Positions 1 through 712 of a DNA stretch of 712 bases are shown here, one piece after another. The translations under genes were made by a program, and so were the position numbers. A model generated the notes under the pieces. That model ran no database searches, was not told where the DNA came from, and saw only the letters and a program-made list of their open reading frames with translations. Source of the stretch: Escherichia coli. Its GTDB lineage: Bacteria > Pseudomonadota > Gammaproteobacteria > Enterobacterales > Enterobacteriaceae. Position 1 is the stretch's first letter, and each line of letters begins with the position of its first letter. The DNA is taken from the NCBI RefSeq assembly GCF_003334765.1, contig NZ_QOWT01000105.1. One strand, given 5' to 3'.

Positions 1-354
1 TACACCGAAATTGATCTGAAGATTTTCCGTCAGTACCTCGCTCCCGCGCTGGGTGTAACTCACCGCTTTGTCGGTACTGAACCCTTTTGTCGCGTTACCG
101 CCCAGTACAACCAGGATATGCGCTACTGGCTGGAAACGCCGACTATCTCCGCACCGCCCATCGAACTGGTTGAAATTGAGCGGCTGCGTTACCAGGAGAT
201 GCCGATATCCGCTTCCCGGGTACGTCAACTGCTGGCGAAAAACGATCTCACGGCTATCGCGCCGCTGGTCCCTGCAGTCACGCTGCATTATTTGCAGAAC
301 CTGCTTGAGCACTCCCGCCAGGACGCGGCAGCTCGTCAAAAGACCCCCGCATGA
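1..354 (+). CDS. citC: [Citrate (pro-3S)-lyase] ligase (citrate lyase synthetase), C-terminal portion; 5'-truncated by window edge
   Basis: Frame +1 is open from base 1 to the TGA at 352-354 (117 codons: YTEIDLKIFRQYLAPALGVTHRFVGTEPFCRVTAQYNQDMRYWLETPTISAPPIELVEIERLRYQEMPISASRVRQLLAKNDLTAIAPLVPAVTLHYLQNLLEHSRQDAAARQKTPA*). The track ORF 118..354 is the same frame starting at an internal Met. The sequence matches my recollection of the E. coli CitC C-terminus, and the gene sits directly upstream of citD as in the cit operon. No start codon is visible because the gene begins upstream of the window. Confidence 0.88.
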   Translation, partial: YTEIDLKIFRQYLAPALGVTHRFVGTEPFCRVTAQYNQDMRYWLETPTISAPPIELVEIERLRYQEMPISASRVRQLLAKNDLTAIAPLVPAVTLHYLQNLLEHSRQDAAARQKTPA

Positions 355-359
355 GAAAC

Positions 360-365
360 AGGTGA
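360..365 (+). promoter_or_regulatory. Putative Shine-Dalgarno (AGGTGA) for citD
   Basis: Purine-rich AGGTGA at 360-365 in the 14-nt citC-citD spacer, 3 nt upstream of the citD ATG at 369. The spacing is shorter than the usual optimum. Confidence 0.5.
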
Positions 366-368
366 AAA

Positions 369-665
369 ATGAAAATAAACCAGCCCGCCGTTGCAGGCAC
401 CCTTGAGTCTGGGGATGTGATGATACGCATCGCCCCACTCGATACGCAGGATATCGACCTGCAAATCAACAGCAGCGTTGAGAAACAGTTTGGCGATGCA
501 ATTCGCACCACCATTCTGGACGTTCTCGCCCGCTACAACGTGCGCGGCGTACAGCTGAATGTCGATGACAAAGGCGCACTGGACTGCATTTTACGTGCAC
601 GACTGGAAGCCCTGCTGGCACGCGCCAGCGGTATCCCGGCTCTGCCATGGGAGGATTGCCAATGA
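369..665 (+). CDS. citD: Citrate lyase acyl carrier protein (gamma subunit), complete
   Basis: ATG at 369 to TGA at 663-665, 98 aa ([98 protein letters not shown]). Length and sequence match my recollection of E. coli CitD, including the conserved Ser14 (codon TCT 408-410) that carries the prosthetic group. It lies between citC and citE as in the canonical operon. Confidence 0.93.
649..654 (+). promoter_or_regulatory. Putative Shine-Dalgarno (GGGAGG) for citE, embedded in the 3' end of citD
   Basis: GGGAGG at 649-654, 7 nt upstream of the citE ATG at 662. This is typical spacing for an internal ribosome-binding site in a translationally coupled gene pair. Confidence 0.6.
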
Positions 666-712
666 TTTCCGCTTCGCTGCAACAACGTAAAACTCGCACC
701 CGCCGCAGCATG
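662..712 (+). CDS. citE: Citrate lyase beta subunit (citryl-ACP lyase), N-terminal 17 codons; 3'-truncated by window edge
   Basis: ATG at 662-664 overlaps the citD stop (ATGA, 662-665). The frame stays open to the window end: [17 protein letters not shown], which matches my recollection of the E. coli CitE N-terminus. Only 51 nt are visible, so the call rests on that match plus conserved gene order. Confidence 0.8.

Follow-up and report, generated by a model that had tools for sequence, protein, structure and literature searches.

A 712-nucleotide piece of the Escherichia coli citCDEFXG-citT locus and the gene content around it

Gene layout of the window

The window, by which we mean the whole 712-nucleotide stretch of DNA analyzed, contained three co-directional frames on the + strand in the ORF listing. 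A frame open from base 1 ended at a TGA at 352–354, a 98-codon ORF occupied 369–665, and a third frame started from an ATG at 662 and ran off the end. The first frame (1–354, + strand) was the 3′ end of citC, which encodes [citrate (pro-3S)-lyase] ligase, and comprised its last 117 codons and the TGA stop; this assignment followed the annotation of a genome 100% identical over the window and a match to TIGR00124. The 117-aa CitC fragment was aligned to profile positions 230–335 of 335 of this NCBIfam model (E = 1.1e-49), and its score was under the full-length cut-off because only a fragment of the protein is encoded here. The second frame (369–665, + strand) was a complete citD encoding the 98-aa citrate lyase acyl carrier protein (gamma subunit). 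It passed both NCBIfam models, NF009726 (143.7 bits; cut-off, 65) and TIGR01608 (100.3 bits; cut-off, 63.5), and it was annotated as WP_000700703.1, with an identical CitD protein, in all of the E. coli genomes inspected. The third frame (662–712, + strand) covered the first 17 codons of citE, encoding the citrate lyase beta subunit, according to the annotation of the identical genome, whose full-length CitE scored 452.1 bits on TIGR01588 (cut-off, 443.4). CitX and CitG of the same genome each passed their own curated NCBIfam models.

The junctions between these genes were tight. The citC–citD spacer is 14 nt (355–368) and contains AGGTG (360–364, + strand), a putative Shine-Dalgarno-like motif 4 nt 5′ of the citD ATG. 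The citE ATG overlaps the citD stop in the tetranucleotide ATGA (662–665), and GGAGG (650–654, + strand), located within the end of citD and 7 bases 5′ of the citE ATG, would serve as the Shine-Dalgarno motif of citE. The short spacer and the ATGA overlap fit co-transcription and translational coupling, and the spacing suggests that coupling may extend across citC-citD-citE.

The TCT codon at 408–410 (+ strand) encodes Ser14 of CitD. Alignment showed that Ser14 within its AGTLES motif was invariant among the E. coli, Citrobacter-type, and Klebsiella pneumoniae CitD proteins. We take this residue to be the attachment site of the 2′-(5″-phosphoribosyl)-3′-dephospho-CoA prosthetic group, as established by work of the Dimroth and Bott laboratories.

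Gene identity, order, and conservation were observed directly in this study. The enzymology and regulation of citrate lyase, including its anaerobic, citrate-dependent expression, are established biochemistry and genetics, and they are read here onto the genes. CitD would be the small acyl carrier subunit carrying the dephospho-CoA-derived prosthetic group on Ser14, for which CitG would produce the triphosphoribosyl-dephospho-CoA precursor and CitX would join this precursor to apo-CitD. The enzyme would then be activated by CitC through acetylation of the prosthetic-group thiol. CitF would swap the acetyl for a citryl group, and CitE would cleave the citryl-ACP to oxaloacetate with regeneration of acetyl-ACP. 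Citrate is predicted to be taken up via CitT against succinate, and expression under anaerobiosis would be controlled by CitA/CitB (DpiB/DpiA), the citrate sensor pair whose genes are transcribed divergently.

Conservation of the locus and its flanks in Escherichia coli

A megablast search of the window against 5,426 complete E. coli genomes showed that it was at least 99% identical in 5,422 of them and 100% identical in several, always with the annotation citC, citD, and citE. The ORFs, the annotation, and the NCBIfam models thus agreed with the description of the visible part as the core of the cit operon in the earlier note made from the sequence. Compared with individual strains, the window was identical to E2348/69 and FDAARGOS_497, was 1 base off K-12 strain C600, the Tokyo wastewater isolate WP4-S18-ESBL-07, and the circular record peccDNA113, and was 5 bases off O157:H7. 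Many strains share the window without a single difference, so it cannot identify the source strain or that strain's own flanks; the remark that 712 bp cannot show the neighbors is true of the window alone. We therefore read the flanks in genomes that were 99.3–100% identical over the window and inferred those of the source from them.

In FDAARGOS_497 (100% identical), the order was pagP, dcuC, dpiA and dpiB on the opposite strand, citC, citD, citE, citF, citX, citG, citT, rna, rnk, yldA, and uspG. The neighbors that had been anticipated from general knowledge were all found in this annotation: the citAB pair (dpiB/dpiA) was divergent upstream, citT followed directly downstream of the operon, and citX (L001 15117–15668, 183 aa) and citG (L001 15643–16521, 292 aa) were two separate genes downstream of citF with a 26-nt overlap. 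A check of the flanks for cit genes and for mobile elements, as the earlier note had advised, returned the canonical genes and, within 12 kb on either side of the window in the FDAARGOS_497 annotation, no transposase, phage gene, or mobile element. The same gene order was found in K-12 C600, O157:H7, E2348/69, WP4-S18-ESBL-07, and DH10B, and the 11.8-kb block from dcuC to rna was at least 80% covered in one place in 5,406 of the 5,426 genomes. The gene content of the flanks within E. coli is therefore nearly invariant, almost as much so as the window itself.

These features are those of locus I of E. coli K-12, defined as citCDEFXG-citT with the divergent citAB (= dpiBA) between dcuC and rna (PMC2735749). 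The window encodes a CitD with the conserved serine, with citC directly 5′ and citE directly 3′ on the same strand. In genomes 99.3–100% identical over the window, these are followed by citF, separate citX and citG, citT, and then rna downstream, with divergent dpiB/dpiA and dcuC upstream. Content, order, orientation, spacing, and CitD are the same as in K-12, and the difference is that the best-matching lineage has diverged by approximately 2% over the 11.8-kb block, mostly outside the window. We regard the window as almost certainly a piece of the chromosomal E. coli citCDEFXG-citT locus that holds the end of citC, the whole of citD, and the start of citE, and no observation spoke against this assignment. 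The window and its neighborhood constitute the ordinary textbook citrate lyase locus of E. coli, which is already known.

Two other origins were weighed against this assignment. Derivation from another Escherichia species or a cryptic clade, rather than from E. coli proper, would be compatible with the gene order, since E. albertii, E. whittamii, and other Escherichia species share it, but their representatives were only 95.1–98.5% identical to the window whereas many E. coli were 100% identical, making this origin extremely improbable. Derivation from a mobilized, plasmid-borne cit locus rather than from the native chromosome has a precedent in two E. coli plasmids (LR890350.1 and JALDNN010000003.1), which carry an extra block of truncated dcuC, dpiAB, citCDEFXG, citT, and rna between two copies of IS26. 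The cit copy bounded by IS26 was, however, 82.8% identical to the window and closest to the Citrobacter freundii complex (97%), its nearest species representatives over the window-equivalent being C. werkmanii (97.3%) and C. portucalensis (97.1%). The other records labeled as plasmids with at least 99% identity were megabase chromosome pieces, whole chromosomes filed as plasmids, and one 113-kb chromosomal circle with genes in native order. Because of these identity values, a plasmid origin of the window is effectively refuted. The plasmid-borne segment itself looks like a piece of C. freundii-complex chromosome captured by IS26, judging from its sequence similarity. In both plasmids (L002 6969–24712 in plasmid 2 of LR890350.1), the captured segment is 16.6 kb long and lies between IS26 copies in the same orientation; after rna it continues with genes for a flavin reductase and a hydrolase, then rnk and uspG, followed by a partial DMSO-reductase-family operon.

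Returning to the chromosomal locus, the census over the 5,426 genomes indicates that changes in its gene content are very rare; those seen were a deletion associated with an insertion sequence, a duplication in a laboratory strain, and the Citrobacter-derived plasmid copy. The deletion was found in strain a7 (NZ_CP122496.1; L003 7873–10227), in which pagP is followed directly by an ISKpn26 (IS5-like) transposase gene and then by a 5′-truncated citT, and dcuC through citG have been deleted; very few other complete E. coli genomes lack citCDE. A second match to the window at E ≤ 1e-250, that is, a near-identical copy spanning the window wholly or for the most part, was present in 41 E. coli chromosomes. 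In DH10B (NC_010473.1), citD occurs at 589,042–589,338 and at 702,302–702,598, exactly 113,260 bp apart, and the second copy is due to a known tandem duplication of 113,260 bp in this cloning strain, which has been published as a 113-kb duplication (PMC2408644; bioRxiv 10.1101/2024.10.01.616104). The peccDNA113 record (CP110860.1; L008) is a 113,260-bp circle of ordinary chromosomal genes in native order; since its length is that of one repeat unit, it may be a collapsed assembly of the DH10B duplication rather than a real episome. For WP4-S18-ESBL-07 (NZ_AP022087.1; L004 and L007), two places were reported; the second was not found in the annotation read around the native locus, which reached 20 kb in the upstream and 70 kb in the downstream direction. 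We also considered whether second places in E. coli could represent a Klebsiella-type island; this was ruled out, as the 6.3-kb K. pneumoniae island from citS to citG had no match in the complete E. coli genomes at the sensitivity of megablast. The best-known functional rearrangement of a cit-locus flank is described in PMC5918244.

Farther downstream, approximately 11 kb from the window and beyond ahpCF and dsbG, lies the LysR-family gene ybdO (L001 24079–24712; L003 17717–18619). RefSeq now names this gene citR, with the product "DNA-binding transcriptional repressor CitR", and an older record of the plasmid collection keeps ybdO. CitR is a further regulator tied to the locus by name, outside the classic picture of the operon.

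Nucleotide diversity and the search for overlapping elements

The claim that variation lies in the flanks of the window held in part. The flanks carried 2–4 times more nucleotide polymorphism than the window, and gene content differs between genera, but within E. coli the gene content of the flanks is nearly invariant. To describe the polymorphism, we compared nucleotide diversity across the 11.8-kb block. In six E. coli genomes, polymorphism across the block was lowest in the window: the bin at window positions 183–682 (L001 12183–12682), where citC ends and most of citD lies, contained 4 variable sites per 500 nt, compared with 10–33 in the other bins. Third-position diversity, from a sample of only five or six genomes, was 1.4–1.8% for citD and citC and 3.3–5.7% for their neighbors. 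The per-gene pattern was mosaic, as E2348/69 was near the reference in citF–citT and farther from it in dcuC, with the opposite pattern in the wastewater isolate, which indicates recombination inside the cit locus. Outside the trough of low diversity, the locus was 2–3% diverged and mosaic.

A hidden functional element overlapping the genes (an antisense RNA or a structure in the mRNA, for example) could produce low diversity of this kind, as an alternative to ordinary gene-to-gene variation or recombination history. Besides the variable-site counts and the third-position values, a count of terminator-like hairpins pointed in this direction: the window contained 4, compared with 0.7 expected from shuffles. 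One lies on the + strand (273–287) and three lie on the − strand (398–383, 362–346, and 513–491), the latter inside citD or at the citC–citD junction. These hairpins are, however, short consensus matches within coding sequence, with short stems and weak T-runs. The searches for an element were all empty: no Rfam match was found in the window at E ≤ 1, no promoter-like site was present in the window, the three antisense or out-of-frame ORFs of the window matched no protein family, and folding of both strands showed no significant excess stability over shuffles (z = −1.5 and −1.9). On the Rfam, promoter, ORF-family, and folding results, hidden elements in the window were rejected as candidates. 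The diversity values themselves were also unexceptional when scaled to divergence from the Citrobacter-type copy in an HKA-style comparison. The within- to between-species ratio was 0.036–0.043 for citC and citD and approximately 0.05 for dpiA, citX, and rna, a difference obtained from a small sample at a locus that is mosaic by recombination. We consider a hidden overlapping element as the cause of the low polymorphism highly improbable. The low diversity of the window was likewise discarded as an anomaly, its ratio being only slightly under those of several neighboring genes, as expected from ordinary gene-to-gene variation. A broader proposal, that the approximately 1.4-kb trough over citC and citD is the trace of one allele recently swept through the species by recombination, or of synonymous sites being under selection from an unrecognized overlapping element, for example an antisense transcript, would be very unlikely as well.

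Citrate lyase loci of other genera and the arrangement of citX and citG

To place the E. coli locus among those of other genera, we performed a pattern scan with the CitD serine motif, which is not exhaustive, and annotated the 35 species-representative loci obtained by tblastn with E. coli proteins. The order pagP-dcuC-dpiAB-citCDEFXG-citT-rna with separate citX and citG was found, where the sequence reached, in Escherichia, most Citrobacter, Salmonella enterica arizonae and diarizonae, and Intestinirhabdus. In most Citrobacter loci with both genes in range, 2–3 kb were inserted between rna and rnk. The scan returned no locus fit to be the species representative of E. coli, though the window matches the pattern, and absences from it therefore carry little weight. 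The sole locus titled Escherichia coli (strain SCPM-O-B-8794; L014) shared 95.1% identity with the window, a value like those of other Escherichia species, and its sequence identity suggests that this strain is probably a cryptic-clade Escherichia.

Gene content varied farther from E. coli. An Erwinia MAG (L024 5385–7418) and Pantoea coffeiphila (L032 9700–11574) showed the order citF-citX-citT, and no CitG-like sequence was found in the fetched DNA at E ≤ 1; citG of these bacteria must be located elsewhere in the genome or have a substitute, a situation that would parallel the remote citX of Klebsiella. Two loci (L027 4349–14739 and L044 4783–8736) had dcuC directly before citC with no dpiA or dpiB between them, and in L027 a cus-like RND efflux operon of approximately 7 kb lay between pagP and dcuC. 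The records L027 and L044 bear the titles Chryseobacterium sp. 18061 and Citrobacter sp. 18056, and they were 75.5% and 74.7% identical to the window, respectively, with similar gene orders. The DNA of L027 is clearly enterobacterial, and because it also resembles L044 in identity and gene order, the record is probably mislabeled or contaminated. Some Citrobacter genes were fragmented. In C. koseri NCTC10786 (L038), tblastn recovered dpiA, dpiB, citE, citF, and citT each as several pieces and only parts of citX and citG, and in C. amalonaticus AUH_CA_2023_1 (L023), it recovered citC and dpiB in pieces. These pieces would reflect either a locus decaying through multiple frameshifts or long-read assemblies with indel errors.

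The arrangement in Klebsiella bears on the statement in the earlier note that the citX function is fused into citG in K. pneumoniae, which proved to be wrong. We examined the chromosome of K. pneumoniae strain 176 (CP125156.1). A tblastn search with E. coli CitX found one place only, a standalone 179-aa gene annotated as citX, with a divergent response-regulator/histidine-kinase pair upstream and rluA downstream; its product scored 205 bits on TIGR03124. The citG gene was located approximately 22 kb from citX at the end of the lyase genes, adjoining dapB, and its 302-aa product matched the CitG and MdcB models only. Among the lyase genes, citD, citE, and citF were annotated, and citC was absent from the distributed gene table. 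The citS gene, the genes for the beta and gamma subunits of oxaloacetate decarboxylase, and a two-component pair were divergent from citG. The passages of PMC2735749 on this subject, citing Schneider et al. 2002, agree with these observations in describing a 13-kb citrate fermentation region of K. pneumoniae without citX and a second locus that holds citX with citW and the divergent citYZ.

This arrangement corresponds to locus II of K. pneumoniae and Salmonella, in which citS-oadGAB-citAB and the divergent citC2D2E2F2(X2)G2 lie next to dapB. Locus II resembles the E. coli locus in having the same citrate lyase subunits and the same Ser14 motif of CitD. The two loci differ in that their CitD proteins are 45% identical, in that locus II has the Na+ symporter CitS where E. 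coli has CitT, and in that locus II contains oxaloacetate decarboxylase genes. Neither citS nor oad genes were annotated near the cit locus of the E. coli genome identical to the window. In K. pneumoniae, the locus II cluster has no citX, which lies approximately 22 kb away with a citYZ-like two-component pair.

A fusion of the two proteins does occur in other bacteria. A CitXG fusion is known from Haemophilus influenzae, and a "CitXG protein" is annotated in Oenococcus oeni. The 475-aa protein annotated as citG in Limosilactobacillus fermentum DR9 comprised a CitX domain (residues 12–178) and a CitG domain (residues 194–462). Among the proteins compared from E. coli, K. pneumoniae, and L. fermentum, CitX and CitG were joined in one polypeptide only in the last. 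The lactic acid bacteria thus have the same two activities of prosthetic-group biosynthesis adjoining citCDEF as one protein, whereas E. coli has them as two genes with the 26-nt overlap. The fusion of lactic acid bacteria was probably assigned to Klebsiella by mistake, and the correction matters because a citX-citG fusion wrongly attributed to Klebsiella could spread into later annotation.

Two minor features of the K. pneumoniae strain 176 record were also observed. The gene upstream of citX, where citW was expected, was split into overlapping ORFs of 219 and 294 aa (L005 5404–6794) that were absent from the gene table; the citW of strain 176 has probably suffered a frameshift. The record CP125156.1 itself is a 5.37-Mb chromosome filed as a plasmid.
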